Shown here: one piece after another, positions 1-17,421 of the stretch
Layout: each line of letters starts with the position of its first letter
How positions within the stretch are numbered: position 1 is the first letter of the stretch
Assembly: GCA_018662305.1 (NCBI GenBank)
Contig: JABJGI010000148.1
Span: 1 to 62,711 of the forward strand
Length of the DNA stretch: 62,711 bases
Direction: 5' to 3'
Source: Porticoccaceae bacterium
GTDB taxonomy: Bacteria; Pseudomonadota; Gammaproteobacteria; Pseudomonadales; GM7GCV1
The notes under the pieces: model-generated
Told to the model about the DNA's origin: nothing
The model's database searches: none
Seen by the model: only the letters and a program-made list of their open reading frames with translations
Program-made: the position numbers and the translations under genes

Positions 1-204
1 CAGCCTACCGCGGGTGATTATGAGATCGCGTTTGATAATTACACCGCAGATTTCCCAGTTCAGGTTTGGGGATCACTCTACAAGCCCACAGGAGAAGTGG
101 TAATTGCTCCATTTAATCTCAGTGGGTCTTCCGAGCCTGTTTCCGTTTTAGGGTTTTCGATTTCAAATGAATTTGAATATCAGGAGACTTTCCGTGGACC
201 ATAA
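1..204 (+). CDS. 3' end of an ORF that begins upstream of the window; hypothetical protein
   Basis: Frame 1 is open from base 1 to TAA at 202-204 (QPTAGDYEIAFDNYTADFPVQVWGSLYKPTGEVVIAPFNLSG...). No motif recognised. Confidence 0.3.
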   Translation, partial: QPTAGDYEIAFDNYTADFPVQVWGSLYKPTGEVVIAPFNLSGSSEPVSVLGFSISNEFEYQETFRGP

Positions 205-261: not shown

Positions 262-660
262 ATGAAAACTTACATTGTCGGACGAAGTGATTCTGCCGAT
301 ATTCAATTGGAAGATTCTTCAGTATCAGGTCAGCACTTGAGCATTACTCCGCAGTCAGGTCGATGGCACGTAAAGGACTTGGACTCTACCAATGGGACAT
401 TTGTGATGAATACCCAAGGAAAGCATGAGATCAAAGAAGAGACGCTAGAAGGATCAGAGCGACTGCTTTTAGGAAACTGTGTGGTTGCTCTGGCGGATTT
501 GACAGCAGGAATCCAGCCCCAGTCCCAATCTCAGCTAGAGTCAGGGGCAGGGGCAGGTGCAGGTGCACAGAAGGACACAGGTAGACAAAGCTCTGAAGAC
601 AGTGGTTTTAGTCGATATATACGGACCGAAGATGGTCGCTACGTGAGGAAATCAAAATAA
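262..660 (+). CDS. small single-domain FHA protein
   Basis: 132 aa. FHA core IVGRSDSADIQLEDSSVSGQHLSI...VKDLDSTNGTFV. AGGAGG at 250-255. Stop overlaps the next start (TAATG 658-662). Confidence 0.75.
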   Translation: MKTYIVGRSDSADIQLEDSSVSGQHLSITPQSGRWHVKDLDSTNGTFVMNTQGKHEIKEETLEGSERLLLGNCVVALADLTAGIQPQSQSQLESGAGAGAGAQKDTGRQSSEDSGFSRYIRTEDGRYVRKSK

Positions 661-1487
661 TGCTATCACATGCCGTTTTGGTCCGAATTATCGGAATAGT
701 TGTGGGTGTTTTATGGGTGGTACTCCTGAGTTTCGGGTTGCCCATTAGTGTTGACGAGTCCGGTTTCTCCTGGCATGCGTTTTTAATAGCCACTCAAGAC
801 CCCATGTATCCCTTCAATGTGCAGGTGCTGATGTGGATTGCATTCTTTTATTGCCTATCTGAGGTCGCAATAAAAAGTTTTGGACAAATTGAAGAGCGTC
901 GCTGGATGAACGCCTTCTCGCTTTACCAGAACCCGAGCGCTGTCACCGTCTATACCGCAAAGGGGGAAGAGGTTCGCGTTGATCTGGACTCCAATGAAGC
1001 CCTTAAGCCCGAGCTGTTGGCGGCAATTTTTTATGCAAAACGCAAACAGCTGAATCCCAAAGCGGCAATCACAGCTATCTTCAAAAAGATCAATCATCAG
1101 TTTCAGAGTACCAACGACGTGGGTGACGTCTACAGCGCAGTAACAGCGGACATTGATATGCGGTTGCATCAGGTAGACCTGAGCTACACCGTTATTCGCT
1201 ATCTGGTTTGGCTAATCCCCACGCTTGGCTTTATCGGCACGGTTATTGGCATTGCGCTGGCCTTAGGTCAGGCGGCTGCACTGGGAACCGGCGATCCGGA
1301 AATGCTTGAAAAAGTCATTCCCATGCTCGCGACAGCCTTCTACACAACTTTGCTGGCCCTCCTGCAATCTGCCGTGCTTATGATTCTGATTCAAGTAGTA
1401 CAGGCGAAGGATGAGCAATTGGTCAACACAGTGGGTGCCTTCTGTATGGATGAGATAGTGACTAACCTGAAACCCGGCTCAAATTAA
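660..1487 (+). CDS. MotA/TolQ/ExbB-family-like integral membrane protein
   Basis: 275 aa. N-terminal TM segments, a long soluble loop, then LIPTLGFIGTVIGIALAL ... PMLATAFYTTLLALLQSAVLMILI, which resembles the MotA/ExbB channel signature by eye. No ExbD/TolR/MotB-like partner nearby. Confidence 0.5.
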   Translation: MLSHAVLVRIIGIVVGVLWVVLLSFGLPISVDESGFSWHAFLIATQDPMYPFNVQVLMWIAFFYCLSEVAIKSFGQIEERRWMNAFSLYQNPSAVTVYTAKGEEVRVDLDSNEALKPELLAAIFYAKRKQLNPKAAITAIFKKINHQFQSTNDVGDVYSAVTADIDMRLHQVDLSYTVIRYLVWLIPTLGFIGTVIGIALALGQAAALGTGDPEMLEKVIPMLATAFYTTLLALLQSAVLMILIQVVQAKDEQLVNTVGAFCMDEIVTNLKPGSN

Positions 1488-1501
1488 TCTGGTGTATCAC
1501 G

Positions 1502-2173
1502 ATGAGTAGAATTGGCGATGACGACAAGAGTGCAACCCGCATTATCCGTAGCGATCCTACGCGATTAGTGCGCAAGTCCAAGGACAAAAAGCCCGATCAG
1601 GAAAACGCGACAGTCAAGATTAATCCTGCGTCTACGGGGAATAGCAGCAATGCACTATCTCCCGCCGAAGAGGCAACAAAAAAGCTCGACCCAGCTGTCC
1701 AGAAAAAGATTGAAGCAACTGGCAGGCGCGATCAGCCAGAGTTTATGAAGACGGGCGATAAAACCAAGGTGTTCAAGCCATCATCGGACAGTGGCTCCGA
1801 AGAAGATGTTAAAGAGAACGAAACACCTGTCGTGGGCTGGTTGGTTATTGTCGATGGGCCGGGGAAAGGGACGGCACTGGAGTTCAGTTTTGGACTACAG
1901 ACCATCGGGCGAGATTCTGGTCAGTCAATTTCCCTGGATTTTGGCGATGAAGAAATATCTCGTGAAGCACACGCCACCCTTGAATACGACCCCCGAGAGC
2001 GAAAGGTGTACCTGAGCAAAGGCGCAAACCTTGTGTACCTAAACAGCGAACGTGTAGGTCAGGGCGCAGAAATTGGTCTCAAATGGGGTGATGTCATCGA
2101 ACTCGGGGCTACCAAGCTACGATTTGTCTCATTCTGTAGCCCGGATTTTTGCTGGACGGACGGCGACGGCTGA
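1502..2173 (+). CDS. FHA-domain protein with a Lys/Ser/Asp-rich disordered N-terminus
   Basis: 223 aa. C-terminal FHA: VVGWLVIVDGPGKGTALEFSFGLQTIGRDSGQSISLDFGDEEISREAHATLEYD...VYLNSERV. Confidence 0.75.
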   Translation: MSRIGDDDKSATRIIRSDPTRLVRKSKDKKPDQENATVKINPASTGNSSNALSPAEEATKKLDPAVQKKIEATGRRDQPEFMKTGDKTKVFKPSSDSGSEEDVKENETPVVGWLVIVDGPGKGTALEFSFGLQTIGRDSGQSISLDFGDEEISREAHATLEYDPRERKVYLSKGANLVYLNSERVGQGAEIGLKWGDVIELGATKLRFVSFCSPDFCWTDGDG

Positions 2174-2178
2174 TCTAA

Positions 2179-3069
2179 ATGAAAGCAGTCTGGAGCGCAG
2201 CTCAGATTCAGGGATCACGTGATTATCAGGAAGATTTTTTTGCCGTGGTTGATTCCGACCTGGTCTATTACCGTGATCAAGAATACGAACTTGAAGAAGG
2301 CATCGCTTTGCAGGGGCAGACATTGCTCATACTCGCCGATGGCATGGGGGGAATGGGGCACGGTGATTTAGCCGCCGCTCAGATAATCGAAAATTTTATA
2401 AAGTACTACTTAGCGGAATATCAGGATACGCAGGATATTGGCGATAGCATGTTGTCCGGTATGCAGAGCGCAAATCAGATACTCACCGGCCTTGTCGCTG
2501 AAAATTCTGATTATGAAGGTATGGGCGCTACGCTTATCGCGCTGTTGTGGGATGAAGTTGAGAGCAAGATTTACTGGGTAAGCGTGGGTGACTCCATGCT
2601 CTACTTATACCCTCAAGGTGCAAAGCCGAGAAGGCTGAATGAAAAACACACTTGGAGTGAGCAGTCGGAAAAACTCGCCGCTCAGATTAGCCATCTCTCA
2701 GAAAAAGAGTTTACCGAAATCAAGGATGTGCTTTGTTCAGCTGTAGATGGCTCTGAACTGGAAATGTACGACTTGCAGACTGAAGGTATTGAAATCGGGT
2801 CAGGAGATTTTGTGCTGATAGCTTCAGACGGACTGGAAACACTGAGCCTCGATGCTATTGAAGCCTGTGTGAACGACAGTGAGCAAAGTGTGACGCCGGC
2901 AGATGTTGATACTCTAGTTGAAAGGGTTAGCCATACAGTCGCCTCGCTTATCGAGGATGTGGAGGCAGCGGGCCGGCCCGGACAAGACAATACTACGGTG
3001 ATATTACTTAGCAGTTACCAGGACGTTGATTTGAATATAAATGCAGAACAAGAGGCCGCTGCACAATGA
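2179..3069 (+). CDS. PP2C-family Ser/Thr protein phosphatase
   Basis: 296 aa. Motifs QGSRDYQEDFF, ILADGMGGMGHGDLAA, GMGATLIAL, VSVGDSMLY, IASDGL, QDNTTVILL. Confidence 0.85.
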   Translation: MKAVWSAAQIQGSRDYQEDFFAVVDSDLVYYRDQEYELEEGIALQGQTLLILADGMGGMGHGDLAAAQIIENFIKYYLAEYQDTQDIGDSMLSGMQSANQILTGLVAENSDYEGMGATLIALLWDEVESKIYWVSVGDSMLYLYPQGAKPRRLNEKHTWSEQSEKLAAQISHLSEKEFTEIKDVLCSAVDGSELEMYDLQTEGIEIGSGDFVLIASDGLETLSLDAIEACVNDSEQSVTPADVDTLVERVSHTVASLIEDVEAAGRPGQDNTTVILLSSYQDVDLNINAEQEAAAQ

Positions 3070-3833
3070 ATAAAAATATACTTATCTCGGCGTTAGTGTT
3101 TCTCGTTGTACTCGTAGGCGGGTACTTTTTGGTTGCCGGGGGTTCTTCCAGTGATACGTCGGGAAGCGGATCTGCCGGCAGCGAGACAGCTGGTGAGGGA
3201 GTGGCTAACAGCGCTGCTCAATCGACGGACAAGCCCGCGACTGGGGTAAGCACCTCAAATGGCAGTCCAGACAAGGATGCTGACGAGTTGCTTGTCGGTG
3301 AAAGTGGTTTGCCAAGTGTGCGTTATGTTGAGATTGAAGCGGGAACCCTTGTGGAATCGGTCGCACAGGCACAACAAGTGGTCGATCAACAGTCAGCGGC
3401 ACTAGGAATTGAATTTCCAGCGTCCTTAGCAGTGGTAGACAACACCGAGGACGGATTGGGAAACAGCTACTACCAAATAGACCAGTATTATTCGGAGATT
3501 CCAGTCTACGGCGCGAGTGCTCTGCTGGAAGTTCAGAACAATGAGGCAGAGTTTCTTTCGGGTATCTGGGAAGACAATATTGAGCTAGTTACGGAACCGA
3601 CCTACTCTGCAGAAGAGGCACTAACAATCGCTGCGAACAATCTCGGATCAACACAAGAGACATCTCTCGAGTTTCTCGGACAGCCGGCACTGGTTATTTA
3701 CATATCTAACCTGGATACACATCTAGCATGGCATATGAAGGCCAGAATCTTTGCCGGAAGTGACTACGAAGAGCTGATAGTGGATGCCCACAATCCCAAC
3801 TTCCTACTCCAAGTCAGTCTGGAACTTCACTAA
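3066..3833 (+). CDS. membrane-anchored protein resembling an M4-protease propeptide (FTP/PepSY-like)
   Basis: 255 aa. TM anchor ILISALVFLVVLVGGYFLVAG, Ser/Gly-rich spacer, then YYQIDQYYSEIPVYGASALLEVQNNE and AEEALTIAANNLG, reminiscent of FTP + PepSY modules. ATGA overlap at 3066-3069 and TAATG overlap at 3831-3835. Confidence 0.4.
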   Translation: MNKNILISALVFLVVLVGGYFLVAGGSSSDTSGSGSAGSETAGEGVANSAAQSTDKPATGVSTSNGSPDKDADELLVGESGLPSVRYVEIEAGTLVESVAQAQQVVDQQSAALGIEFPASLAVVDNTEDGLGNSYYQIDQYYSEIPVYGASALLEVQNNEAEFLSGIWEDNIELVTEPTYSAEEALTIAANNLGSTQETSLEFLGQPALVIYISNLDTHLAWHMKARIFAGSDYEELIVDAHNPNFLLQVSLELH

Positions 3834-5602
3834 TGAATAGGGTCCTAAACAGCACAGCCCTACTTATTTTGATGCTGGTTTCAGCGGCGGCATCTGCTCA
3901 ATACAACCTGGTTCACTTCGATATGCAGGAGACTTGTATCGCTGATTCGGTGATAAATCGACTCTACGAAGATATCGCCAGCGGAGGGGCCTCTCGTGTC
4001 GGTCAGACAGGTCAGCAGATGGGTGTGGATGTCACAGATGGCATCGGATTGAGCAGCAAGTCGCAACAATCCGTAGAGGACTTATTGTCAGTAATCGATT
4101 TCTTTGGCGAGCTGGGCTGGAATGCCGCAGGGACTTCAGAGCCAATGCTGCTGTTGTCTAATCTAGCCGACTCAACCTGCGATGGGATGAATGCCTGGTA
4201 CATGAATGTCGAAGACAGCGCGCACATCATGGCGATCTATTATGGGCATGAAGATAGCCCGGATAGCATGGCGAAAGACTATGACTTTGCCAGTCATGAA
4301 TATGGGCATGGTTTCTTTGGGCGGCATCAGCGTGCTCGTTCCCATGAGATAAGCGCATTGAATGAATCCGTATCTGACATGTTTGGGGCTGCCTACAAAG
4401 CCTGGATGACGACGGGCAAAAGCATGGACACCCTGACTGCCCGGCAAGACAGCTATTTGGTCGGCGAGTTTTGGGCGGAAGTTATGCGCGACTACTTTGG
4501 CTATGACGTAGATATTATGCGGGATATGGCCAATCCGGCTGTGGCTGGAGACCCAGACTATTACACGCGAGAAACGGCACGAAACACACCGATCCATTCA
4601 TTGGGCGGCGTTTCCAATCTGGCTTTCGTACTGATGTCGCAGGGAGGTTCACATCCCCGCGGCGCTAGCTCGATTGAGGTTCAGGGAATCGGCATTAAGA
4701 AAGCGATTGAAATTGTCTACTACGCTTTCTTTCATCGTATTCCCTTTAACAATATGCCGGAGTTCGGTGATGCGGTGCGAAAGGCGGCAATACGAATGCA
4801 CGGGCCTGAAAGTGTCGAATATCGTTCGGTAGATATGGCATTTCAAGCAGTTGGCCTAAACAACGGGCTGCCGGCAGCGGAATTGCAGCAACCACAGGAA
4901 GAAGCTGAAGAGTCGCAAAGGGAGCAAGCGCAGCCCGAACCCGAGGTTGTGCAAGAAGAAACAGCAGAAATCGAAGTAGCAGACGAAACCCAACAGGAAG
5001 AAACAGCCGCTCAGCCTGTAATAAGCATCTCAGGACCAACCTTTATGGTCATTCTTCTGGCGGCCATTTTTGCCGGCAGCATGTGCATGGTCTGGTTGGG
5101 CCGCAATCAATCAAAAACAGCCAACGCCGCAAACGAGATGATTGTTGATCATTCAGGCGAAGGCATGCTGGACATGGAAAAACGTAACAGGCCAGCGCAG
5201 GCCGATACAGGAGTCGAACCAAAACAGGAAGCATCTCAGGCTACAGAGGTATTCCGCCCCGCAAAAGTAAAAACAAGCCTAGCGGCAATTTTGACAGTTG
5301 CCGGGCAACGTTTTGAGTTAAGCCTGGATTCTGAACCATTAGAGCTTGGTCGAAGCGCTGAACTGAATCTTCCCGGTGCTTTAAAAGCGGTGCTGGCCGA
5401 GCAGGCCCACATTTCCCGAAGGCATTGTGCAATCTGGTACAAAAGCGCAACAGGCGAGCTCTATCTGGAGTCTCGCAGTGACAATGTTTTGCAATTGGCA
5501 GGACAAAGCATCGCGCCACATTCCAAAGCCAAGATTGATTTTGATCAGCCGATAGAAATCACATTGGCGACATTGATCATCACTCTCGAGCCGATCTCCT
5601 GA
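3833..5602 (+). CDS. thermolysin-like (M4) metallopeptidase domain - acidic linker - TM helix - cytoplasmic FHA domain
   Basis: 589 aa. Signal peptide LLILMLVSAAASA|Q. HEYGH (nt 4295-4309) followed 19 residues later by NESVSDMFG (thermolysin NEAISDIFG-type third zinc ligand). IHSLGGVSNLAFVL resembles the M4 C-terminal VH.NSGI.NKA motif. Linker QQPQEEAEESQREQAQPEPEVVQEE. TM FMVILLAAIFAGSMCMVWLG. C-terminal FHA LELGRSAELNLP...ISRRHCAIWYKSATGELYLESRSDNVLQLAG. Confidence 0.7.
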   Translation: MNRVLNSTALLILMLVSAAASAQYNLVHFDMQETCIADSVINRLYEDIASGGASRVGQTGQQMGVDVTDGIGLSSKSQQSVEDLLSVIDFFGELGWNAAGTSEPMLLLSNLADSTCDGMNAWYMNVEDSAHIMAIYYGHEDSPDSMAKDYDFASHEYGHGFFGRHQRARSHEISALNESVSDMFGAAYKAWMTTGKSMDTLTARQDSYLVGEFWAEVMRDYFGYDVDIMRDMANPAVAGDPDYYTRETARNTPIHSLGGVSNLAFVLMSQGGSHPRGASSIEVQGIGIKKAIEIVYYAFFHRIPFNNMPEFGDAVRKAAIRMHGPESVEYRSVDMAFQAVGLNNGLPAAELQQPQEEAEESQREQAQPEPEVVQEETAEIEVADETQQEETAAQPVISISGPTFMVILLAAIFAGSMCMVWLGRNQSKTANAANEMIVDHSGEGMLDMEKRNRPAQADTGVEPKQEASQATEVFRPAKVKTSLAAILTVAGQRFELSLDSEPLELGRSAELNLPGALKAVLAEQAHISRRHCAIWYKSATGELYLESRSDNVLQLAGQSIAPHSKAKIDFDQPIEITLATLIITLEPIS

Positions 5603-5616
5603 AGCCCCAGATAAAT

Positions 5617-6369
5617 ATGAGCTCCTCAGACAAGGTATTTGGAGCCCAGATTCAGGGCGATCGTAAATTTCAGGAGGACGCGTTTCAGATTGAAAAACGC
5701 GATGAAGGAGTGCTGCTTGTCCTTTGTGATGGAATGGGTGGCCATTCCGGCGGAAATCAGGCGAGCAAGTTAGCCATTGCTACTTTCATCGACAGTTTTT
5801 TCAGCACGAGCGACAGCTTGACTTCCCGTTTGAGGGCGGGTGTCGAAGAAGCCAATAATCGGATTCTTCAGGCGGGCGTAGAGAACCCCGAGCTGAATAA
5901 AATGGGTACCACCTTATTGGCGGTATTTGTTCAAAACAGCCAGATAAATTGGATAAGTGTAGGGGATTCGCCACTCTGGCTTATACGCGGTGGCAATATA
6001 CAACGCCTCAATGCGAACCACTCTCTAGCGGCAGTATTTGAAGAGATGGTTAAAACAGGCCATATGAGCGCCGAGGATGCAGCGACAGATCCAAATCGAC
6101 ATTCGCTTCGCTCTTCATTGTCTGGCGACGAGATCAAGTTAATTGACGAGCGTGAAACGCCATTCGAGCTTCAAGTAGGGGACTGTCTGCTACTCGCAAG
6201 TGATGGTTTGGAAACGCTCCCTGAACAGAAGATACTCGACTTGTGGCAGTCCGAGCCGGACCGTTACATTGAGATGCTTTTGGACGCAGTAGAACAAGCG
6301 GGCAAAGAAAATCAGGATAATACGAGTGCCCTATGCTATTTACTCGGTCAGACGGAGACGACAAACTAA
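5617..6369 (+). CDS. PP2C-family Ser/Thr protein phosphatase (second copy)
   Basis: 250 aa. QGDRKFQEDAF, VLCDGMGGHSGGNQAS, MGTTLLAV, ISVGDSPLW, LASDGLETL, QDNTSAL. Confidence 0.85.
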   Translation: MSSSDKVFGAQIQGDRKFQEDAFQIEKRDEGVLLVLCDGMGGHSGGNQASKLAIATFIDSFFSTSDSLTSRLRAGVEEANNRILQAGVENPELNKMGTTLLAVFVQNSQINWISVGDSPLWLIRGGNIQRLNANHSLAAVFEEMVKTGHMSAEDAATDPNRHSLRSSLSGDEIKLIDERETPFELQVGDCLLLASDGLETLPEQKILDLWQSEPDRYIEMLLDAVEQAGKENQDNTSALCYLLGQTETTN

Positions 6370-6474
6370 AAGCCTGGCATCGCTGGAGAGCGGCATCTAG
6401 AACGGCAACTAGAGCGGCGATTAAGGGGCCAACAGAAATTGATAGATACATACTAATGGCAGGTATTTTCACCT

Positions 6475-8586
6475 ATGGATCATCACGCGCTACCTAACGG
6501 CTTCATGCTGTCTGAGTACCGAATCGACAAGCTTTTGGGCGAAGGCGGTTTTGGTCTGACCTATTTGGGTTTTGATACTCATCTGGAAAAGACGGTTGCG
6601 ATCAAAGAATACTACCCAGCGGATTTTGCATTTCGAAAGGATGGTACGACTGTTGTTGCCAAGAGTGATGCCAGCGCGAAGGATTACGACTGGGGGTTGC
6701 AGGCCTTTTTAAGTGAAGCCAAAACTCTCGCCAAATTTACCGATCCAAATATCGTACAAATATTCCGCTTTTTTGAGGCTCACGGCACCGCTTATATGGT
6801 GATGGAGTTCTGTGAGGGCGGAAACCTGAAAGAGCGCCTAACGCCCGATCAGCCCATGAGCGAAGAGGAAGTTAAGGCGTTCATGATTCCTATCATGAAC
6901 GGTCTGCAACTGGTTCATGAGAGCGAGATATTGCATCGCGACATCAAGCCAGAAAACATAATGTTTCGCCGGAATGGCACGCCCGTCCTTATCGATTTTG
7001 GTGCCGCGCGACAGGCGATTGGCGCCAAAAGTCGATCAATCACGACCATTGTTACTCCAGGTTTTGCTCCGATCGAGCAATACAGTTCAAAAGCAGTAGT
7101 GGGTCCCTCAAGTGATATTTATTCCTTGGCTGCCGTTGTATACAACTGTCTGACTGGCCAGAGACCTGATGATGCAATGGATCGCATAATGGTCGATGAA
7201 CTCGATAAATTAGGAGAGAAACCAAACTCCTCAGCATTTTTAAAGTCGATAGACAAAGCTCTGTCCGTTCACGCGGAGCAGCGTCCGCAGAACCTGATTG
7301 ACTGGTATGAAGCCTGGCAAGAGCAAGACGAAGAAGGCGAAGATTCAGTCGCAGCAGAATCTGACCGTTCAATTCGCAAACCGGCAGACCCCACAGTCGT
7401 TATCCCCCGCGAAGAGCAAACTAAAGAAGGGAAAAACAGCGGAGGAAATAATTTCCGCGCACTACCAGTAATCATTATCGTTTTCGTTCTTGCCGGACTA
7501 GGTATTGGGGCCTATAACTTTATGGGCTCACCGGATCCCGACATAACCGATACCACAGGTGAACAAGGCGTCGGGGAAGGAAATGGAGATGTATCTAATG
7601 TGCAAGAAACTGTTGCGGAAGAAATATTACCAACTTCCTCGTCGGAAGAATCTGAGGCTGAAGCCCTGCGCCAGCTGGTGATGGATGTACAGTCCGAATT
7701 GCTGCGATTGGGCTATGACATCGGCACCGCAGATGGTGTTTTAGGTGCGCGAACTACCGCGGCGGTCGGTTATTTTCAGGCGGCTACCGGAACGACGGTG
7801 GACGGTGAAATTGACGAGGTTTTGTTATCTGCCCTGCAATCCACACAAAGCCGCCCCGGGCCTTCACCAGGCGACAGCATTCAGGACTGTGATGAGTGCC
7901 CGCAACTGGTTGTCATCCCAGAAGGAAGTTTCGACATGGGCTCCAATTCTGAAGGGGAAAGCGAGCGGCCTCTAACTTCGGTCAGTATTCGCCAGCCCAT
8001 TGCTATTGGTGTCTATGAAGTTACTTTTGACGAGTGGGGCACTTGCATTCTCGAAGGCGGTTGTTCGACAAGACCCTATTCAGAAGGTTGGGGCCGAGGT
8101 ACTCGCCCGGTGATGAATGTGAGTTGGGAAGATACTCAGCAATATCTTGCCTGGCTAAATAATAAAACCGGTGAGTCCTACCGATTACCCTCAGAAGCAG
8201 AATGGGAGTACGCGGCACGTGCCGGCACATCTACAGATTATTTCTGGGGTACTGATGTCGGTTCATATCGAGCCAACTGTGATGGTTGTGGCAGCGAGTG
8301 GGACAATGAACAAACGGCGCCAGCCGGAAGCTTCTCACCAAACAATTTTGGTCTCTATGACGTTCATGGCAACGTCAATGAATGGGTACAGGATTGCTGG
8401 TACGACAATCACGCTGGGGCTTCCGGAAATGAGGCAGCCCGAGAGTACAGTGGCTGTACTGACCGCGTATACAAAGGCGGATCTTGGTATAGCTACGCTG
8501 AGTTTCTGCGAGTTAGCAACCGAACCCCACAGGCCGCGTCAGAAATTCGCTCCTGGACTGGATTTCGTGTCGTTAGAGACCTCTAA
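6475..8586 (+). CDS. Hanks-type Ser/Thr kinase - TM - peptidoglycan-binding domain - FGE/SUMF1-like domain
   Basis: 703 aa. GEGGFGLTY, VAIKEY, HRDIKPENIM, DFGAAR, GFAPIEQY. TM LPVIIIVFVLAGLGIGAY. PG_binding-like LLRLGYDIGTADGVLGARTTAAVGYFQ. C-terminal FGE-type CDECPQLVVIPEGSFDMGS...YRLPSEAEWEYAARAG...GLYDVHGNVNEW...KGGSW...GFRVV. Confidence 0.85.
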   Translation: MDHHALPNGFMLSEYRIDKLLGEGGFGLTYLGFDTHLEKTVAIKEYYPADFAFRKDGTTVVAKSDASAKDYDWGLQAFLSEAKTLAKFTDPNIVQIFRFFEAHGTAYMVMEFCEGGNLKERLTPDQPMSEEEVKAFMIPIMNGLQLVHESEILHRDIKPENIMFRRNGTPVLIDFGAARQAIGAKSRSITTIVTPGFAPIEQYSSKAVVGPSSDIYSLAAVVYNCLTGQRPDDAMDRIMVDELDKLGEKPNSSAFLKSIDKALSVHAEQRPQNLIDWYEAWQEQDEEGEDSVAAESDRSIRKPADPTVVIPREEQTKEGKNSGGNNFRALPVIIIVFVLAGLGIGAYNFMGSPDPDITDTTGEQGVGEGNGDVSNVQETVAEEILPTSSSEESEAEALRQLVMDVQSELLRLGYDIGTADGVLGARTTAAVGYFQAATGTTVDGEIDEVLLSALQSTQSRPGPSPGDSIQDCDECPQLVVIPEGSFDMGSNSEGESERPLTSVSIRQPIAIGVYEVTFDEWGTCILEGGCSTRPYSEGWGRGTRPVMNVSWEDTQQYLAWLNNKTGESYRLPSEAEWEYAARAGTSTDYFWGTDVGSYRANCDGCGSEWDNEQTAPAGSFSPNNFGLYDVHGNVNEWVQDCWYDNHAGASGNEAAREYSGCTDRVYKGGSWYSYAEFLRVSNRTPQAASEIRSWTGFRVVRDL

Positions 8587-8628
8587 TTGAGCGAATGGGG
8601 TGACATACCTCTGAAATACCTCCCCTTG

Positions 8629-9648
8629 TTAGTCTGAAGCTCGCAAGAACATGCTTGCCGCTTCAGGGTCGCAGTTATAGGGCTCGGGAACTACGTGGGG
8701 GGAATAGATCAATTCGCGTGCGTGGCGAATAGGTGATGCCATGAATTCAGGGTCTTCGACAACAAATTCAAGGGCAATACGCTCTCCATTATCAATTAAC
8801 CTATAACGCTCCACGACGCGCTTCTGCGCGCCAGAGGGAACGCCAATTTGGTAAGGCGCACGGTGATCGGTGAAATTTGCCGTGTTGACCACTAGCGTGT
8901 CACCTTCCCAGTGACCGATCGAATGACCTGTCTGGAAACGCTCACTGATGTCGGGATGCCCACGACCATCCATATGGACGACCCGAACCTCGTCCCAATA
9001 TTCTGTTTGGATGAGGATAGTGTCTTCATCTTGAAAAACGAATTCGATAGGGAAGAGAGTGCTTGAAAGGAGCATTCCTGGTGTCGGTCGACCGACGCAG
9101 CCCGCCATAGGATTTTCGGCGGACAGAGGTTCAAATGCCTCCAGAGCAGCGCGTCCCTTTTCGGTCAGTTCGATGTGAGCCAGAATAAATGCGTCAAATT
9201 CGAACTCACCGTCCGGCAGGCTAGCGTGATCGGTCATCCACAATCCCTCTAGGGTTGTTGCAGCAGCCTGAACAGCGGGCGTATAAAAATTCACGCCTGA
9301 AATCATGCCCTGTTCTAAGTCGACTGAGTCGACCAGACCGTAAGGACGACCATTGACCGCGGCGTGCACTCTCGTCACCACCTGGTCTCCGACACTCAAG
9401 GTGTTCTCCGTCCATCCCATACGCGATGCGGAAGGGATTGAACCCAGTTGCATGGACCACTCCTCGGTCTCACCAGATTCCCCCATTGTCTCGAGCGTGA
9501 AATATGCGTGGGGATTACGCCAATAGAACCCAGTGATGCTTCCTTCAAAGCTTGTGAGGTTCTCCATATCCAAACCTGCATCGCTGTGATGTGCGCTTGC
9601 GGTTGCCGCAAAAAATAAAGCCAGGCTGCATAAGATTAGGGTTTTCAT
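8629..9648 (-). CDS. secreted HH-NPH family protein, long form (P1; DUF6152-like N-terminal module, recalled from memory)
   Basis: 339 aa. Signal peptide ending ATASA then HHSDAG. WRNPH. C-terminal GHSIGHWEGDTLVVNT, VVERY, EDPEF, two Cys in the mature part. AAGGAG upstream. Confidence 0.7.
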   Translation of the reverse strand: MKTLILCSLALFFAATASAHHSDAGLDMENLTSFEGSITGFYWRNPHAYFTLETMGESGETEEWSMQLGSIPSASRMGWTENTLSVGDQVVTRVHAAVNGRPYGLVDSVDLEQGMISGVNFYTPAVQAAATTLEGLWMTDHASLPDGEFEFDAFILAHIELTEKGRAALEAFEPLSAENPMAGCVGRPTPGMLLSSTLFPIEFVFQDEDTILIQTEYWDEVRVVHMDGRGHPDISERFQTGHSIGHWEGDTLVVNTANFTDHRAPYQIGVPSGAQKRVVERYRLIDNGERIALEFVVEDPEFMASPIRHARELIYSPHVVPEPYNCDPEAASMFLRASD

Positions 9649-9696
9649 CGTCGCTCTCCTTTAGTGAGGCTTCATCTCGCTAGATCAGAAAATCAC

Positions 9697-10617
9697 TTAT
9701 CCGAGTGAATGGAAGTGTTCAAACATCCTTTGTCGCATCGCTTCGTCGGGCAGACGTCCAAATCCTGAACTCATATTGTCTAGGGCGTAACGGGGGTTTC
9801 TGGTTTCCGACAGGGCGCATGTCACAGCGGGATGAGAGAGGATGTATTTGAGTGAAAACTGGGCCCAGGAAGTACAATCGAATTCCGCTGCCCAATCTGG
9901 AAGTTCGTGTCCAGCTACCGTGCCAAAGTAGGCGCCATTAACAAAGGGCCGGGTGGTTATCACGGCGACGCCGTTCGCCATTGCCGCAGGCAGAACACGG
10001 TTCGCCGCGTCAGGCTGAAGCATGGAATAGTTGACCTGCATAATATCCAATTCGCCGGCCTCGATAAGTTTCAGAGTTTGCTCTTCTTCTACCTGGTCAG
10101 TGGTATGAGTTATGCCAATGTAGCGCGTTCGTCCCGCATCCTTCCAATCTTTAAGAGTGGGCCAATGGTTGTCCATATCCATCAAGAGGTTGACCATTAA
10201 AAGGTCGGCGGGATTTTTACGCATCGAACGCTGCAATATCTCAAGGTGCTCAATTCCCTCCTGTTTTCCAGTCACCGTGATTTTTGCAGAGAGAAAGGTC
10301 TCGTCCAGCACGTCCATCTCTTCGAGAAGAGAGCCCAAAACCGGAATTCGGCCCCGCAGAATCGAAGGGTTATCTATCACTTTTCCACCCATCTCAAGCA
10401 TGGTCTGAACTACGGACATAGGTACTTCCTTGCCGCCCTCCGGAAGTTCCATAAACACCGGTGAGGAGCCGAGCCCGCACACAGGTAACTCCTCGCCAGT
10501 TTTGGGTATCGCCCGTCTGCGCATGCTCTCCTGAGCTAGTGCAGGAGTTGGCAGCGTTGCAGCAACTGTGGAGGCTGCGCTAGCTGAAAGAAATTGTCTT
10601 CGGTTAAAGCTATTCAT
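9697..10617 (-). CDS. Tat-signal aldo/keto-reductase-fold protein
   Basis: Start moved to the internal ATG (MNSFNRRQFLSASAASTVAATLPTPALA), 8 nt after the stop of the upstream gene. Twin-arginine motif RRQFL. AKR-like (beta/alpha)8 motifs FLSAKITV, YIGITHTT, ITTRPF, SETRNPRYALDNM. Confidence 0.65.
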   Translation of the reverse strand: MNSFNRRQFLSASAASTVAATLPTPALAQESMRRRAIPKTGEELPVCGLGSSPVFMELPEGGKEVPMSVVQTMLEMGGKVIDNPSILRGRIPVLGSLLEEMDVLDETFLSAKITVTGKQEGIEHLEILQRSMRKNPADLLMVNLLMDMDNHWPTLKDWKDAGRTRYIGITHTTDQVEEEQTLKLIEAGELDIMQVNYSMLQPDAANRVLPAAMANGVAVITTRPFVNGAYFGTVAGHELPDWAAEFDCTSWAQFSLKYILSHPAVTCALSETRNPRYALDNMSSGFGRLPDEAMRQRMFEHFHSLG

Positions 10618-10625: not shown

Positions 10626-11654
10626 CTATTGGCTGTCCGTGGCACATTGATAAGGTTTGATTTCTTCACCAGGAACCCAAGGGAAAACTTGTTCCTGTAC
10701 AACGGGCTCGGTAAAGGTATTGGGATCATTGATAGTTGCTTGCCAATGTAGGCCGGTTTCGTCTTCATTGACTGTCCATCGTTCCATAACATGCACTTCG
10801 TTAGACATCGGCGTGCCTCTGTCATCAAATGATTGAGCTTGAATATTGGTTGTTTCAACAACCAAAGTGTCGCCTTCCCAGTGTCCTACTGAATAGCCCT
10901 CGCGTGACGCCGGGAATTCAGCTGCGACGGAAATGTCTCCTCCCATGTGGATAGTGCGCACCGTATCCCATGATTCCAAGCGCAAGATGATGTCGTCGCC
11001 CTGCTGGCTAAATTCAATAGGCATGGAGACGTCCATAACAGCCGGCATGGCAGTGGGAATGCAGTTTAAAACAGGGTCTTTCGTAGGGTCGTAGGCTTCT
11101 TTCGACGCGGCTGCCGATTCAGTTAGAGGCAGTGGATCGTTGAGGTTTCGAACAAAGCCGCGAGACCAGGTGCGGAAAATGCCGTCCGCCTGAGCGATGT
11201 ATTCCTCAATATTTCGAGTTTCGATCTCCGGAACTGAGATGACCAGCTCCCGATCGGGCCAGCGACGTTCGGGAGGATTTCGAGGCCACAAGATAACCTC
11301 GAATTGATCTGCTACCAGGAGGTTGTAGGCGCGCATTTGATTACTGGCACGTCTGGCTGGTGGACCCCAAAAAGAAACAGTATCACCAAGGCTAAGTGTG
11401 TCCGGGCTTACACCCAGTCGTTCCAGCTGGTTTACAGCATTGCTTTCCACAATCCACTCTTCTTCCTGACCACTTTCGTTTGTGACTGTCAGAGTGAAAG
11501 ATGAATGCGGATTGCGCCAGGCGGCATCGGTTACCACTCCGGAGATCTCGACGCGCGAGTCGCCATCAAAAAATACCGCGCCGGAATGATGCGCATAAAG
11601 TTCGGGGGCAACTAGAAAGAGACCGGTAATGATGGCTGCTGAGATTAGTTTCAT
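10626..11654 (-). CDS. secreted HH-NPH family protein, long form (P2)
   Basis: 342 aa. ...PELYA then HHSGAV. WRNPH. GYSVGHWEGDTLVVET. Conserved Cys pair (VLNCIPT, YQCATD). Confidence 0.7.
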   Translation of the reverse strand: MKLISAAIITGLFLVAPELYAHHSGAVFFDGDSRVEISGVVTDAAWRNPHSSFTLTVTNESGQEEEWIVESNAVNQLERLGVSPDTLSLGDTVSFWGPPARRASNQMRAYNLLVADQFEVILWPRNPPERRWPDRELVISVPEIETRNIEEYIAQADGIFRTWSRGFVRNLNDPLPLTESAAASKEAYDPTKDPVLNCIPTAMPAVMDVSMPIEFSQQGDDIILRLESWDTVRTIHMGGDISVAAEFPASREGYSVGHWEGDTLVVETTNIQAQSFDDRGTPMSNEVHVMERWTVNEDETGLHWQATINDPNTFTEPVVQEQVFPWVPGEEIKPYQCATDSQ

Positions 11655-11687: not shown

Positions 11688-12707
11688 TTACTCCGAAAAA
11701 CGTTTGGCAGAATCGACTTCGCATTCGAAGGGCTGAACGGAGACGCCCGTTGCGGCGCGGTTCATGATCATGCTCCCAGTATAGAGATCTGTGAGATATA
11801 CCGGGTCTTCAATATCGTAATCGAGTGTAAGCACCTGCCCATCTTCGCTGACTGAATATCGCTCAACCACCCGTTTTTGCTCACTTGATGGGATATCTGC
11901 AGGAGGCCCCTTAGGTTGTGCTTCAGATGAAAGCCCCCAACGAGAAGCCGGATAAGCCTGACTTTCAATCACCATGACATCTCCTTCCCAACTGGCAGCA
12001 GCTACTCCCATATAACCGGTAGGATCGGCTGGGATAGGATCGGAATCAAAAGGAATGGTTCTGGTTATGCCGTAAGCCTCGTGCACAAAAATCACTTTTT
12101 CATCATCGATCTGAATATCCGTCAGATAGGGTGAAAGCTGGAGATCTGGAATGGAGAAGGGCTCACAGGTTGTCGCGGGCGAAAGGGTATGGTCGTAGTT
12201 CTCCGCAGCGATTTGTCCAGCTTCGTTCAGAGGTAAAGCCGGTTGAGGGTTCAGGAAGGGCAGGGGCGATGTCCACATGCCTTCGATGCCCATTCCGGCT
12301 TCTTCTTGGGCTGCTTGCGCGGACAGGTCAGGGTGCTCCCCGTAAACCGCACCAGATACTGCGGTCATGGCTCGACCGTAAACTAGGTTTCTTCCTTCTA
12401 CTCGGTTCGGCCACACCACTGCGGAGACATTGTCTCCCGGGCTAAAGGTACTCTGGGCAATACCCATACGCCGTAACATGATGCTCGAGGGGAGTTCGAC
12501 CTCCCAGACAAAGGTTTCACCGCGCTCATCTAGAGACTCGAGCGTGAAAAAAGAATGCGGATTGCGCAAATTAAAATCGGTAACAATACCTTCGATCTCC
12601 ATAGTCCTGCTGGGATCAAAATGCATGGCAAAAGCGTGATGAGATTGCGCTGTTGAGCAAAGCAAGCTGACTACGACAGCTAAGATCGAGAACAGAATGG
12701 CCTTCAT
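11688..12707 (-). CDS. secreted HH-NPH family protein, long form (P3)
   Basis: 339 aa. ...TAQS then HHAFAMHFD. LRNPH. SWEGDVMVIES. VVERY. Cys pair (TTCEPF, FECEVD). GGGGGAAG upstream. Confidence 0.7.
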   Translation of the reverse strand: MKAILFSILAVVVSLLCSTAQSHHAFAMHFDPSRTMEIEGIVTDFNLRNPHSFFTLESLDERGETFVWEVELPSSIMLRRMGIAQSTFSPGDNVSAVVWPNRVEGRNLVYGRAMTAVSGAVYGEHPDLSAQAAQEEAGMGIEGMWTSPLPFLNPQPALPLNEAGQIAAENYDHTLSPATTCEPFSIPDLQLSPYLTDIQIDDEKVIFVHEAYGITRTIPFDSDPIPADPTGYMGVAAASWEGDVMVIESQAYPASRWGLSSEAQPKGPPADIPSSEQKRVVERYSVSEDGQVLTLDYDIEDPVYLTDLYTGSMIMNRAATGVSVQPFECEVDSAKRFSE

Positions 12708-13568: not shown

Positions 13569-14528
13569 CTATTGAGGATTGCATTCGTAGGAATAAAGTT
13601 GCAGCTCTGGGGAATACACCAGAGTGGTTTGGCCCCTAAAGGGTTCTGAGAGATATTCCGGATCTTCAAACCAGATATCGACAATGGCCCGGGTGCGGTC
13701 TTCGCTAAGAGAATACTTTTCGATGACATGTTTGCCCGCGGTTGAGGGAAGGCCGAAAAACGCTCCGCCGATTCTGTGATCTGCCAGCAATCGAGTCTCG
13801 ACTACAAAGACATCATCTTCCCACCAACCAATGGAATGCCCCTGTGGGGTTCGTGCGCCATTTTCTGGATGAGTCCTTCCATCCATGTAGATAGTGCGCT
13901 CTACATCGAAAAATTCGTTTCTAATAAATGCAGCGTCCTCCGCGAATTCTATCTCTGTGAGGTAAAGAGCGTTTGAATTCAAGAAGGGAGGCGGCAAGGG
14001 TTCGCAGCGTAAGTTTTGCGTATGCGATGACTCCTCATATGCGCGCTCGGCTTGCGTACCCGCCTCTGTAAACTGAAAGCTGGTGTTGTTCAGGCTGAGC
14101 TCGGTTGAAGGCTCACCACGCCATACGCCCTCAATGCTTTCCGCAGCTGCAGTTACTTCAGGCGCTTCTTCCACCTGAATCCAGGTGTTTCCGTCTGCAG
14201 ACTGAATGCTGTTAAGAATAGCCTTTAGCTGACCGGTTTGAGCTGGGTGTGCTCTGACCTGAATCGCGTCACCCACCGCAAATAATTCTTCCGACCAGCC
14301 ACTTCTTCGCATTATGGGAGTCGATCCCGTCTCAATTTCCCATTGGCGGCGATCACCTTCTTCTTCCTGAACAAAAATGGTGACGTGGGGATTTCTGAAC
14401 TCGAATCCCACAACGGTTGCGTTAAAAGCGACAAGCTGACTGCGGTCATAAATAGCGTCGCTGTGGTGCGACCAACTAGCGCTTGCTATCAGACAACCGA
14501 GAACAATGAGATAGCTTTTCAGGAACAT
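13569..14528 (-). CDS. secreted HH-NPH family protein, long form (P4)
   Basis: 319 aa. ...SASWS then HHSDAI. FRNPH. GHSIGWWEDDVFVVET. VIEKY. Cys pair (LRCEPL, YECNPQ). Confidence 0.7.
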   Translation of the reverse strand: MFLKSYLIVLGCLIASASWSHHSDAIYDRSQLVAFNATVVGFEFRNPHVTIFVQEEEGDRRQWEIETGSTPIMRRSGWSEELFAVGDAIQVRAHPAQTGQLKAILNSIQSADGNTWIQVEEAPEVTAAAESIEGVWRGEPSTELSLNNTSFQFTEAGTQAERAYEESSHTQNLRCEPLPPPFLNSNALYLTEIEFAEDAAFIRNEFFDVERTIYMDGRTHPENGARTPQGHSIGWWEDDVFVVETRLLADHRIGGAFFGLPSTAGKHVIEKYSLSEDRTRAIVDIWFEDPEYLSEPFRGQTTLVYSPELQLYSYECNPQ

Positions 14529-14848
14529 CGGTAATCTCCAAATTGAATCGATCGAAGATTGTATGTCGCCAAGCTAACTTTGTCAGTTTGTGAGCTTATG
14601 AAAGTGCGAGCTGGCTGCACTAGGAGTCGCCGAGATTCAGTGATTCTTTTTCATCCAAGGAAGAGGTTGGATTCGATGGTTCTGTTTTGTGTTCAGTCTT
14701 CAGCGTTCAGGTTTCAAACTTCGGTAACTAAGACTAACCACCTGGTCAAATCTGCTTCAATGGTCACACCTCGTTAGGGCACTTATACTTTCTGCCTTGT
14801 TGCATTCCATACTCACGGGATGCCCGTCTATCAAAACGAGAATTATTT

Positions 14849-15550
14849 ATGTATCCCTTGCGGTCGCTCTTGATTTTATTCTTCAGTTTTTCTGCTGCTC
14901 AGGCGTTTGCTCAATCCGAATGGGAAACCCCCAATGAGCAGGTTACCGGCGAAGAACTCTATGTCGCCTGTACTTTTTGCCATGGTCTGGAAGCCCAAGG
15001 GAATGATAGAAGAGACGGTCCGGCCCTTGCTGGACTGCAAGCTTGGTATATCGAAAAGCAGATCTACAATTTCAGAAATGGTTTGCGCGCGTACTCTGAA
15101 GAGGATATTCCAGGCAAGATAATGCATGGCAGCACGCCCATGATCAGAGACGAATTCACCATTAAGAGTATTTCCGAATACATAGCAGGACTTGAGCCCG
15201 GGCTACCTATGGCGAGAAACGCGGTAGGTGATAGGCCATTCGTTTGGGATTCTCCCTATGCGGGTTTAGATGAATCGATCGTTGGCGATGCCGCTGCTGG
15301 TGCCTCAACCTACAACGGTATCTGCATGATCTGCCATGGAGCTGAGGGTAGCGGCAATGAAGCGCTCGGCGCAGGCAGCTTAAAGTACCTCTCCGGTATG
15401 TATATGGAGCGCCAGCTGATGTATTTCAGAGATGGAATACGGGGAGCGCATCCGGAGGATGTAACTGGGCAGCAGATGGCGGCAATGGCCAAAACCCTAA
15501 CAACAGATCAAGCAATCGCCGACGTGGTTGCCTATATATTGGAGCTTTGA
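14849..15550 (+). CDS. periplasmic diheme c-type cytochrome (cytochrome c4-like), copy 1
   Basis: 233 aa. Signal peptide. Two CxxCH sites (CTFCHG, CMICHG), each followed by a W/M-Y-x-E-K/R-Q-x-x-x-F-R-x-G-x-R motif and a Met-rich distal segment. Confidence 0.8.
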   Translation: MYPLRSLLILFFSFSAAQAFAQSEWETPNEQVTGEELYVACTFCHGLEAQGNDRRDGPALAGLQAWYIEKQIYNFRNGLRAYSEEDIPGKIMHGSTPMIRDEFTIKSISEYIAGLEPGLPMARNAVGDRPFVWDSPYAGLDESIVGDAAAGASTYNGICMICHGAEGSGNEALGAGSLKYLSGMYMERQLMYFRDGIRGAHPEDVTGQQMAAMAKTLTTDQAIADVVAYILEL

Positions 15551-15588
15551 TTGTGAGACAGAATAGACAGTTCCGGAGTATCGAGACT

Positions 15589-16215
15589 ATGAAGAGTATA
15601 CGAACCTTGGCAAGCGCTCTTTTTGTTTTATGCGCACTAAACCTTAACGCCCAAACACCGGCAGAGGTGAAACTGGTTGCAGCTCTGGAAGAAGATAGAG
15701 GCTGGTGTCTTGATCTGCGTGGCGCACAGCAAAACGCAGCGCCCATAGGTGGCGTGCATGGACACACCTGTTATACCTATCAGGGCAATGGTGTGGCGCT
15801 TGATCAGGGGTTTTTTGTAGAGAACGTTCAGGAGAACAATGAGTTTCGGATGTCGGGATTCCCAGATCTCTGCATGACGCTCTACGAGCCAATAGCTGGT
15901 TCCTTTATCTCCATCGAAACCTGTGATGATCGTGCTTCACAAGACTTTGTATTGGATGAAAGTGGAAAGATTTATTCCGAGACGCATCCCGAATTGTGTA
16001 TGACTTTGGACGATTTTGTTCTACCCGGTGGCGGTGGTCGACCCTTGCATATCATGCGGGATGTCAGCTTCGAAGAATGCGGCAGCGTGGACAGTGTTCT
16101 ACAGACTTGGGAACTGCGGTCCGAGTGGAACGGCCTTGAAGAAACAACGCTTCCGCGACCTTACGAAGTTGGAGCACCTCCTCCAGGTGCGCCCGGAGGA
16201 ATGGGGGCTGGTTAG
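15589..16215 (+). CDS. secreted ricin-B/beta-trefoil-like protein, copy 1
   Basis: Start moved to MKSIRTLASALFVLCALNLNA. Three-fold internal pattern WCLDL / LCMTL / LCMTL with Q-x-F/W motifs (QDFVLDESGKI, QTWELR). Gly/Met-rich tail PGGMGAG. Confidence 0.5.
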   Translation: MKSIRTLASALFVLCALNLNAQTPAEVKLVAALEEDRGWCLDLRGAQQNAAPIGGVHGHTCYTYQGNGVALDQGFFVENVQENNEFRMSGFPDLCMTLYEPIAGSFISIETCDDRASQDFVLDESGKIYSETHPELCMTLDDFVLPGGGGRPLHIMRDVSFEECGSVDSVLQTWELRSEWNGLEETTLPRPYEVGAPPPGAPGGMGAG

Positions 16216-16224
16216 CCCCCTCAT

Positions 16225-17268: not shown

Positions 17269-17359
17269 TGGATTCCCCCTTCCTCGAATCGATATCAATC
17301 AGGGTAGCATCAGACAATCTGAAATATCCTATTTTGGTCTCATCCCTTAACGATTCTTA

Positions 17360-17405: not shown

Positions 17406-17421
17406 GTGATATTTAAGTATC

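Follow-up and report, generated by a model that had tools for sequence, protein, structure and literature searches.

A MotA/TolQ/ExbB-family gene clustered with a Ser/Thr phospho-signalling cassette and a tethered protease in a Porticoccaceae bacterium: a candidate phospho-regulated envelope machine

Ion-driven 5:2 motors (Mot, Ton, Tol, Agl, Gld and Zor) form a small set, each tied to a major envelope function, and recent motor reviews and phylogenies cover the Mot, Pom, Ton, Tol, Agl, Gld, Zor and Sii systems alone. Cassettes of FHA proteins, PP2C phosphatases and Ser/Thr kinases are common and promiscuous. Here we analyze an operon at the start of a 62,711-nucleotide (nt) stretch of DNA of a Porticoccaceae bacterium (contig JABJGI010000148.1, assembly GCA_018662305.1; the whole stretch is called the window below), in which a MotA/TolQ/ExbB-family gene lies among genes for a receptor-type Ser/Thr kinase, two PP2C phosphatases, two FHA proteins and a membrane-tethered protease that also has an FHA domain. 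We give roughly even chances to the reading that the locus is one clade-specific version of a phospho-threonine (pThr)-regulated, proton-driven 5:2-type envelope machine with periplasmic protease effectors. The component families are all known; their combination, namely a TolQ/ExbB-like protein, a vWA or TerD-like protein with an Asp-bearing helix, a receptor Ser/Thr kinase, PP2C, FHA proteins and ectoprotease–transmembrane (TM)–FHA proteins, is undescribed in the full-text literature searched, as the initial annotation of the window had supposed in calling the module uncharacterized.

The locus resembles TolQR/ExbBD and their relatives (MotAB, AglRQS, GldLM and ZorAB) in that P2, the second of the eight proteins encoded in full in the window, matches the MotA_ExbB family, superposes best on ExbB and TolQ, and keeps invariant Pro, Gly and Thr residues in TM2 and TM3. 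By comparison with the known 5:2 motors, its candidate partner, here named BN, has no detectable sequence similarity to ExbD, TolR or MotB and carries a vWA or TerD-like head, whereas ExbD and TolR have a periplasmic domain of their own and MotB has an OmpA-like peptidoglycan-binding domain. P2 has one more N-terminal TM helix, and an output partner of the TonB, TolA or FliG type is absent. Furthermore, Ser/Thr phospho-signalling surrounds this cluster and none of the known 5:2 motors. Zorya differs as well: P2 has 275 amino acids (aa) and lacks the long C-terminal tail, its PADLOC matches to ZorA are weak (E 1e-6 or worse), and ZorB, ZorC, ZorD and ZorE are unmatched.

Receptor-type Hanks kinases encoded in one operon with PP2C and FHA proteins are also found in the PpkA–PppA–Fha1 set of the type VI secretion system (T6SS) and in the actinobacterial FhaA/FhaB–PstP–PknA/B loci, with which this locus would have in common a post-translational control of assembly through docking of FHA domains on pThr. 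It differs from them in having no T6SS core genes, RodA/PbpA or PASTA; its partners are instead the TolQ-like motor protein and periplasmic proteases. All NCBIfam equivalog models for these systems stayed far below their cut-offs (TagH 35.5 bits of 120, PknB_PASTA 146 of 450, FhaB 50.5 of 125, Stp1 144.8 of 230), Pfam detected no PASTA domain in the operon proteins, and RodA/PbpA is not among the neighbours. The absence of T6SS and actinobacterial wall-synthesis partners, stated in the initial annotation, extends to the upstream 9.6 kb covered by L001, a 31.8-kb metagenome contig with the same sequence (L numbers denote loci of our survey): T6SS, cell-division and wall-synthesis genes are missing from both flanks (9.6 kb upstream in L001 and ~9 kb of annotated sequence downstream). 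T6SS core genes (TssA–M, Hcp and VgrG) were likewise not found among ten more ORFs (open reading frames) sampled from the window, about half of whose ORFs of at least 150 aa were scanned in all.

Two further systems bear on the comparison. GltG of the Myxococcus Agl–Glt machinery, a bitopic protein, has cytoplasmic FHA domain(s), a TM segment and a periplasmic part; it is predicted to dock on AglR5QS, a TolQR-like motor, and to engage a cytoplasmic scaffold at repeated sites (GltG/AglRQS/GltI; PMC11761067). It provides a precedent for an FHA–TM–periplasmic protein acting on a TolQR-like motor, and the tethered proteases described below likewise combine FHA, one TM helix and a periplasmic domain. 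Their chain order is reversed, however, with the ectodomain N-terminal and the FHA domain C-terminal; the ectodomain is a protease or vWA rather than TonB-C, the TM helices are not conserved, and the other Glt components are absent. The TerY-P triad, as cited from Anantharaman et al. 2012 in PMC10542128, combines a TerY-type vWA protein with a PP2C phosphatase and a Ser/Thr kinase. Similarly, a vWA (in sister loci) or TerD-like (here) protein is encoded with PP2C and a Ser/Thr kinase, but this domain is predicted to be periplasmic and is fused to an Asp-bearing TM helix, the likeness to TerD being one of fold (Foldseek), and the window operon contains no vWA domain detected by Pfam. In addition, the kinase is a membrane receptor without Zn-ribbon or OB tail, and MotA-like, FHA and protease genes are added.

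Layout and distribution of the locus

Eight plus-strand ORFs encode P1 (262–660), P2 (660–1487), P3 (1502–2173), P4 (2179–3069), P5 (3066–3833), P6 (3833–5602), P7 (5617–6369) and P8 (6475–8586). They are joined by 1-nt TAATG overlaps at 660 and 3833, an ATGA overlap at 3066–3069 and gaps of 14, 5 and 14 nt, with 105 nt ahead of the kinase gene P8. The ORF listing thus reproduces every ORF and junction of the initial annotation; the FHA, PP2C, kinase, M4 and MotA calls made there also held in the Pfam search, and two marginal matches, FHA in P6 and FTP in P5, are backed by orthologues from Marinobacter and Hahella. The eight-gene unit proved too small, since L001 contains two more same-strand genes directly upstream of P1. 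The operon comprises about ten genes and is truncated by the window edge.

The nearer of the two additional genes encodes BN, a 213-aa single-pass protein (L001:8904–9545), of which the last 67 codons are present at 1–204 (+) of the window, corresponding to 9342–9545 of L001. The first gene of the operon is a contig ORF on the same strand (L001:7627–8862, upstream of the window) that encodes a secreted protein of 411 aa with four tandem repeats of ~95 aa (GYIDVTNxTGYDIYYLYVSHEDSSxWGEDVLG...). This protein has zero Pfam matches, was seen among the searched loci in the window species only, and could serve the system as substrate or cargo. Promoter and terminator scans were uninformative, being at or below shuffle expectation, and a consensus scan of the 105-nt gap gave neither promoter nor terminator.

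P2 has more than 1100 homologues. At E<=1e-30, its family comprises 210 clusters (50% identity) in a collection of 1.84 billion representatives. When one genome was scanned per species, at least 549 MotA-like loci were recovered from 185,579 species (~0.3% or more). The cluster is patchy across phyla and restricted to diderm phyla, with loci in at least six of them, comprising Proteobacteria (Gamma and Alpha classes), Gemmatimonadota, Verrucomicrobiota, Latescibacterota, Acidobacteriota and Binatia; cultured carriers include Marinobacter mobilis, M. zhejiangensis, Teredinibacter purpureus and Corallincola platygyrae. Judged by their sequences, the MotA-like proteins define a distinct family.

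To survey gene neighbourhoods, the ORFs of 80 loci were searched with the ten operon proteins and with proteins from three Pfam-annotated sister loci, and neighbours were counted in the 53 loci having at least 8 kb on either side. BN is the most constant neighbour of the MotA-like gene (48/53), followed by a Hanks kinase, in most cases of the receptor type (45/53), FHA proteins (42/53), PP2C (28/53) and protease–FHA proteins (23/53). The commonest gammaproteobacterial order is small FHA, MotA-like, arm plus FHA, PP2C, one or two trypsin–TM–FHA genes, BN and kinase. Alphaproteobacterial loci run kinase, FHA, MotA-like, BN-vWA, FHA and BN-vWA, and those of Gemmatimonadota consist of just kinase, MotA-like and BN-vWA genes. 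The recurrence of the neighbourhood, raised as a question by the initial annotation, therefore holds for the gene set, which is found across phyla, but not for its M4, FTP and P4 portion, which is limited to the clade of the window. Two whole-cluster copies lie ~200 kb apart on one Halieaceae contig (L032 and L035), with identical gene starts and ORF lengths over the shared stretch; the pair may reflect a recent duplication or a repeat in the assembly.

The MotA-like protein P2 and its candidate partner BN

P2 matches Pfam PF01618 (MotA_ExbB) with 47.1 bits against a cut-off of 22.9 (E 2.4e-12). Its AlphaFold2 (AF2) model has a pLDDT of 92.8, and the top 50 Foldseek matches in the PDB are all ExbB, TolQ, PomA or MotA chains (probability 0.90–1.0), with ExbB and TolQ ranking first (probability 1.0, TM-score 0.5–0.73), followed by PomA and MotA. 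The channel-lining motifs PTLGFIGTV and AFYTTLLAL, with their Thr, Pro and Gly residues in TM2 and TM3, are invariant across homologues; Thr194 and Thr229–230 are among the invariant residues. By sequence and modelled fold, P2 is a member of the MotA/TolQ/ExbB family.

BN consists of an N-terminal TM helix with Asp17, a periplasmic Cys/Pro-rich linker and a TerD-like/DUF2135-like beta-sandwich. The helix follows the consensus RExNIFSMSALDLFASALGAFILI..P, in which Asp17 and Gly24 do not change from phylum to phylum, whereas the remainder of the protein varies; positions found invariant in alignments are N9, F11, S12, S14, A15, L16, D17, L18, F19, A20, S21, G24, A25, F26 and P35. For the AF2 model of BN (pLDDT 83.5), the best Foldseek matches are TerD (2kxt) and SAV2460 (2qng), both with probability 1.0 and E ~3e-4. 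The TerD-like sandwich, which bears DxDLHV and EDNxxGPGNE motifs, is found in the window clade and in SAR86-like loci, and a coiled coil plus vWA domain takes its place in 13/24 sampled members of the BN family (Pfam). Matches of Pfam DUF2135 to the family are weak and occur in 6/33 members.

Canonical TolR, ExbD and MotB were not found among the ORFs of ~90 loci searched by phmmer with the E. coli proteins as queries. Alphaproteobacterial loci have BN-vWA as the next gene after the MotA-like gene, an arrangement that matches the A-then-B order typical of MotAB-like pairs (PMC12505986). Because BN is a single-pass protein whose membrane Asp lies close to the cytoplasm, follows the A gene without interruption in some clades and occurs in loci where TolR, ExbD and MotB were not found, it is the candidate B (stator) subunit with which P2 most likely pairs, in a motor that would be proton-driven. 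The initial annotation had called P2 an ion-channel-like protein. Its membrane MotA/ExbB assignment stands, and the protein is better read as a TolQR/ExbBD-type A subunit than as a passive channel, since BN is its most constant partner.

Phospho-switch, sensors and tethered proteases

P8 is a receptor-type Hanks Ser/Thr kinase with matches to Pkinase (142.7 bits), PG_binding_1 (44.5 bits) and FGE-sulfatase (173.3 bits). Its translation keeps VAIK, HRDIKPEN and DFG as catalytic motifs, and hydropathy places the kinase domain in the cytoplasm, a TM helix at aa 329–347, and the PG_binding_1 and C-type-lectin-like FGE-sulfatase domains in the periplasm. The trans-envelope topology of the initial annotation, with kinase and FHA domains inside and protease and sensor outside, is borne out by hydropathy. 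Its proposal of cell-wall sensing by the kinase, by comparison, does not describe a property of the system: the peptidoglycan-binding and FGE pair is one of many interchangeable sensors, replaced elsewhere by PEGA, ten Sel1 repeats, leucine-rich repeats (LRR) plus PG_binding, a beta-helix, ankyrin repeats, or PPC plus PG_binding. A peptidoglycan-binding domain on the kinase occurs in the window and two other lineages, and FGE, which on such kinases usually serves as a ligand-binding module, was detected on the neighbouring kinase in 7/53 loci. In Gemmatimonadota/Longimicrobiales loci such as L024, the kinase position upstream of the MotA-like gene may differ: the L024 product (7957–9909) has LRR and PG_binding but no Pkinase Pfam match at E<=1e-4, and just its first ~120 aa resemble P8. 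The L024 protein may be a degenerate kinase or a pseudokinase receptor.

Such variation of sensors (LRR, Sel1, FGE-lectin, beta-helix, Ank and PEGA), together with interchangeable effectors, is the pattern typical of conflict systems (PMC7159879, a paper that does not mention MotA, ExbB or TolQ), and raises the possibility of a periplasmic innate immunity module against phages or other invaders. In such a module, kinase ectodomains would recognize foreign structures, a Zorya-like motor would sense or transmit envelope perturbation, and proteases would destroy invader proteins or trigger abortive suicide. The patchy spread across phyla fits this picture, as does the resemblance of vWA/TerD-like, PP2C and Ser/Thr kinase genes to the TerY-P triad, some versions of which act as stand-alone phage defence (PMC10542128), and PADLOC returned a weak ZorA match for P2, strong generic matches of P8 to defence kinases (mad6 and PD-T4-6) and a match of P7 to PDC-M21C. 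However, these matches are confined to the generic MotA/ExbB, kinase and PP2C cores, and neither ZorB, ZorC or ZorD nor another defence component was found by PADLOC; a listed defence system was rejected on this ground. Moreover, the operon has no nuclease, NADase or pore-forming effector, housekeeping and metabolic genes rather than defence islands surround the four fully Pfam-annotated loci (window/L001, L091, L092 and L093), and the window is ordinary chromosome, with the operon ~26 kb from the tuf–rpoBC cluster. A role in defence, which as a functional sub-hypothesis is compatible with the motor mechanism, is thus possible though doubtful.

The ectodomain of P8 and the fold of P2 also bear on another role, that of a machine for envelope maintenance, secretion or surface-protein processing comparable to Tol–Pal or GldKLMN/PorKLMN. 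Here the motor would supply energy for processes in the periplasm or at the outer membrane, proteins of the envelope or secreted ones (e.g., the 411-aa repeat protein) would be matured or turned over by the protease, and the kinase would tune both to the state of the cell wall. In line with this are the TolQ/ExbB-like fold of P2, the peptidoglycan-binding domain on kinases of the window and two other lineages, and the FGE domain of P8, which also matches the NCBIfam GldK/PorK model (92 bits, below cut-off); GldK works with the GldLM motor. A secreted repeat protein also heads the operon, the genomic context is housekeeping-like, and the distribution is limited to diderm phyla. Against it, FGE is rare on the neighbouring kinases and the repeat protein is confined to the window species; no conserved outer-membrane component and no TolA/TonB-like or Pal/TolB-like protein was found in the loci; and a presence in ~0.3% or more of species is ill-suited to an essential housekeeping role. 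We consider this role unlikely.

The remaining components of the phospho-switch in the proposed phospho-regulated machine are two phosphatases and three FHA proteins. P4 (296 aa, PP2C_2 38.2 bits) is a divergent extra copy that keeps the catalytic motifs RxxxED, DGMGG, SDG and DN and matches the NCBIfam Stp1 model with 95 bits, below the equivalog cut-off. P7 (250 aa, PP2C_2 61.1 bits, Stp1 model 144.8 bits) also keeps RxxxED, DGxGG, SDG and DN in its translation and is the orthologue of the PP2C of the wider family, because the PP2Cs of other clades fit it far better than P4 (e.g., 3e-54 vs 1e-20). The P4-type second PP2C is restricted to the clade with the M4 protease.

The pThr-binding residues (GR, SxxH and N) are kept in the translations of all three FHA domains, those of P1, P3 and P6. 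P1 is a small cytoplasmic FHA-only protein of 132 aa (FHA 59.7 bits), whose gene overlaps the start of P2, resulting in translational coupling to the motor gene; most loci with FHA genes have a P1-type gene just ahead of the MotA-like gene. The C-terminal tail of P1 is conserved, with R118 and G125 and, in most other clades, a TGEI[IV] motif. Within this tail, a (Gly-Ala)n-coding repeat at 532–570 is length-polymorphic among environmental copies, such that P1 has 132 aa in the window and 128 aa in L002, L003, L004 and L007 (a 4-aa indel).

P3 is a cytoplasmic scaffold with a disordered arm of ~110 aa and a C-terminal FHA domain (33.7 bits). Six T-x-x-[ILVF] motifs occur among the nine Thr residues of its arm, and in P3-type arms of 40 orthologues, which are related sequences, T-x-x-[ILVFM] was counted 116 times vs 49.8 expected, with PTRLVR, ATRKLD and KTVLFR recurring. 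Since pT-x-x-hydrophobic is a classical FHA ligand, the P3 arm is the most plausible multi-site docking platform. A similar enrichment in kinase juxtamembrane segments was weak (21 vs 13.2 expected) and was dropped.

P6 carries a signal peptide, an M4 ectodomain, a TM helix at aa 404–422 and a cytoplasmic FHA domain, as assigned by hydropathy. The Peptidase_M4_C match scores 74.4 bits, and the M4 N-domain was detected in orthologues at 30–37 bits. P6 aligns with thermolysin residues 136–315 and retains HExxH (HEYGH), the third ligand Glu (NES) and the equivalent of His231; on these grounds its ectodomain is assigned to peptidase family M4. The FHA match (19.5 bits) is 1.2 bits under the cut-off of 20.7 in P6 itself, and reaches 22–24.6 bits in two of three orthologues and 18.3 in the third. 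P5, encoded just upstream, is held in the membrane by an N-terminal anchor (TM residues 5–23 by hydropathy) and carries the FTP motif of thermolysin propeptides on its periplasmic side (23.6 bits, cut-off 21; 24.7–29.1 bits in four orthologues). Compared with M4 proteases that have FTP/PepSY, the propeptide is here a separate membrane-anchored product, and the protease is an inner-membrane-anchored fusion with a cytoplasmic FHA domain. In 5/5 loci of the M4 clade (window/L001 and L010–L013), the FTP motif sits in a separate upstream ORF and not in the protease, and the FTP gene directly precedes the M4 gene in four complete M4-clade genome loci. P5 would thus be a separately encoded propeptide acting as chaperone or inhibitor of P6. 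In L009, from a Methyloprofundus metagenome-assembled genome, FTP lies beside a disrupted M4 gene (14512–17860) that is apparently interrupted or replaced by two opposite-strand ORFs (15081–17061); a TM–FHA remnant alone remains (17129–17860), and an extra kinase gene follows PP2C.

The M4–TM–FHA fusion family is very small (~10 clusters, gammaproteobacterial), and FTP, M4–TM–FHA and P4 are confined to the close clade of the window (Marinobacter, Hahella and Teredinibacter), being disrupted in Methyloprofundus. In most other clades the slot holds trypsin-like–TM–FHA proteins. All of these proteins run from a signal peptide through an ectodomain (trypsin, M4 or vWA) and a TM helix to a cytoplasmic FHA domain. 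The emphasis of the initial annotation on the M4 protease was thus misplaced: by sequence comparison, the M4 protease with its separate propeptide is a clade-specific replacement of the trypsin-like protease. The exchange of protease families in a slot that is itself conserved speaks for a tethered periplasmic protease as a working part of the system.

This conserved slot also bears on whether the genes act together at all. A generic kinase, PP2C and FHA cassette might merely have come to lie beside an unrelated ExbB-like gene and a protease gene, without joint function; such cassettes are commonly found and promiscuous, and the 105-nt gap ahead of the kinase gene would fit a loose arrangement. 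However, these genes are found together, often in an unchanged order and with stop and start codons that overlap, in Gamma- and Alphaproteobacteria, Verrucomicrobiota, Latescibacterota, Acidobacteriota and Binatia; the slot for the protease persists although the protease family changes, and FHA is fused to the protease itself. A loose juxtaposition is therefore very improbable.

Proposed machine and genomic setting

In the phospho-regulated machine that we propose, P2 would pair with BN to form a proton-driven 5:2-type motor that projects a TerD-like head (vWA elsewhere) into the periplasm, where the head would engage a periplasmic or outer-membrane ligand. A periplasmic signal would act on the exchangeable sensor of P8, which would write phospho-threonines, likely on the T-x-x-hydrophobic motifs of the P3 arm and possibly at other sites, and the FHA domains of P1, P3 and the P6 tail would dock on them. 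Activation of the kinase would gather P6 at the P2/BN motor or free it from there, switching periplasmic proteolysis, so that the signal would flow from the kinase to the protease and channel. P5 would act as folding chaperone or inhibitor of the M4 domain of P6, and the phosphatases P4 and P7 would erase the marks and reset the system. As to the biological role, the interchangeable sensors and ectodomains and the diderm-only distribution suggest that the periplasm or outer envelope is surveyed or remodelled, and argue against motility or nutrient uptake. A more specific version, in which a new class of 5:2 motor (with a B helix unrelated in sequence to MotB, ExbD and TolR and with vWA or TerD-like heads), receptor kinases with LRR, Sel1 or lectin-type sensors and FHA-tethered proteases together provide periplasmic pattern recognition and response against phages, predators or toxins, appears rather unlikely.

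Several observations weigh against the proposed machine. BN-family members gave no Pfam match to ExbD, MotB_plug or TerD, and a 41-column profile of the BN helix found nothing among PDB sequences up to E 10. Homology of BN to E. coli TolR, ExbD and MotB is not claimed, the hhalign probabilities being 0.1–0.7%; in the best target, MotB, the BN Asp is one residue out of register with Asp32. BN is missing in 5/53 loci, and the motor pairing may therefore not be universal. The Gemmatimonadota versions are without FHA and PP2C, so the phospho-reader layer is accessory and not core, and the enrichment in P3 arms was counted across relatives. The TM helices of the protease–TM–FHA proteins are not conserved, which gives no sign of a TonB/TolA-like helix docking, and the 105-nt gap could house a separate kinase promoter.

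A further motor family spanning phyla would add a new output and a new mode of control to the 5:2 motors, through Ser/Thr phospho-signalling, a non-canonical partner and interchangeable proteases. It would also provide many orphan receptor kinases of bacteria, those with FGE, LRR or Sel1 ectodomains, with a defined function, and would be a rare case of FHA domains linking cytoplasmic phosphorylation to an extracytoplasmic enzyme. The cultured carriers make the system directly testable.

The best homologues are from Teredinibacter (72%), Marinobacter (65–66%) and Hahella (66%); together with the metagenome sources, they place the organism among uncultured marine gammaproteobacteria. Upstream, the 9.6 kb in L001 contain DsbD, cytochrome-d1-like, MscS, hydrolase and NHL genes, of which a divergent NHL-repeat gene is nearest to the operon; downstream are opposite-strand DUF6152 and aldo-keto-reductase genes. 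Further along the window, tRNAs, tuf and rpoBC lie at 34–48 kb. A sulfatase gene (Sulfatase plus SGSH_C) at 58403–59893 (−) shares the window with the FGE-bearing kinase P8, a functional link between the two not being evident.

At least seven DUF6152 paralogues of ~320–370 aa, with the domain N-terminal, are found within the 62-kb window, at 8629–9648 (−), 10626–11654 (−), 11688–12707 (−), 13569–14528 (−), 23169–24230 (+), 54821–55933 (+) and 56001–57068 (−), a local gene-family expansion intermixed with genes for a TAT-signal aldo-keto reductase, an HbpS-like haem-binding protein and a cytochrome c. Adjoining one of them, ~13 kb from the operon, is a second Hanks-type kinase gene at 22058–23014 (+), whose 318-aa product consists of the kinase domain alone, without TM helix or sensor, and could feed into the same FHA network as the operon.

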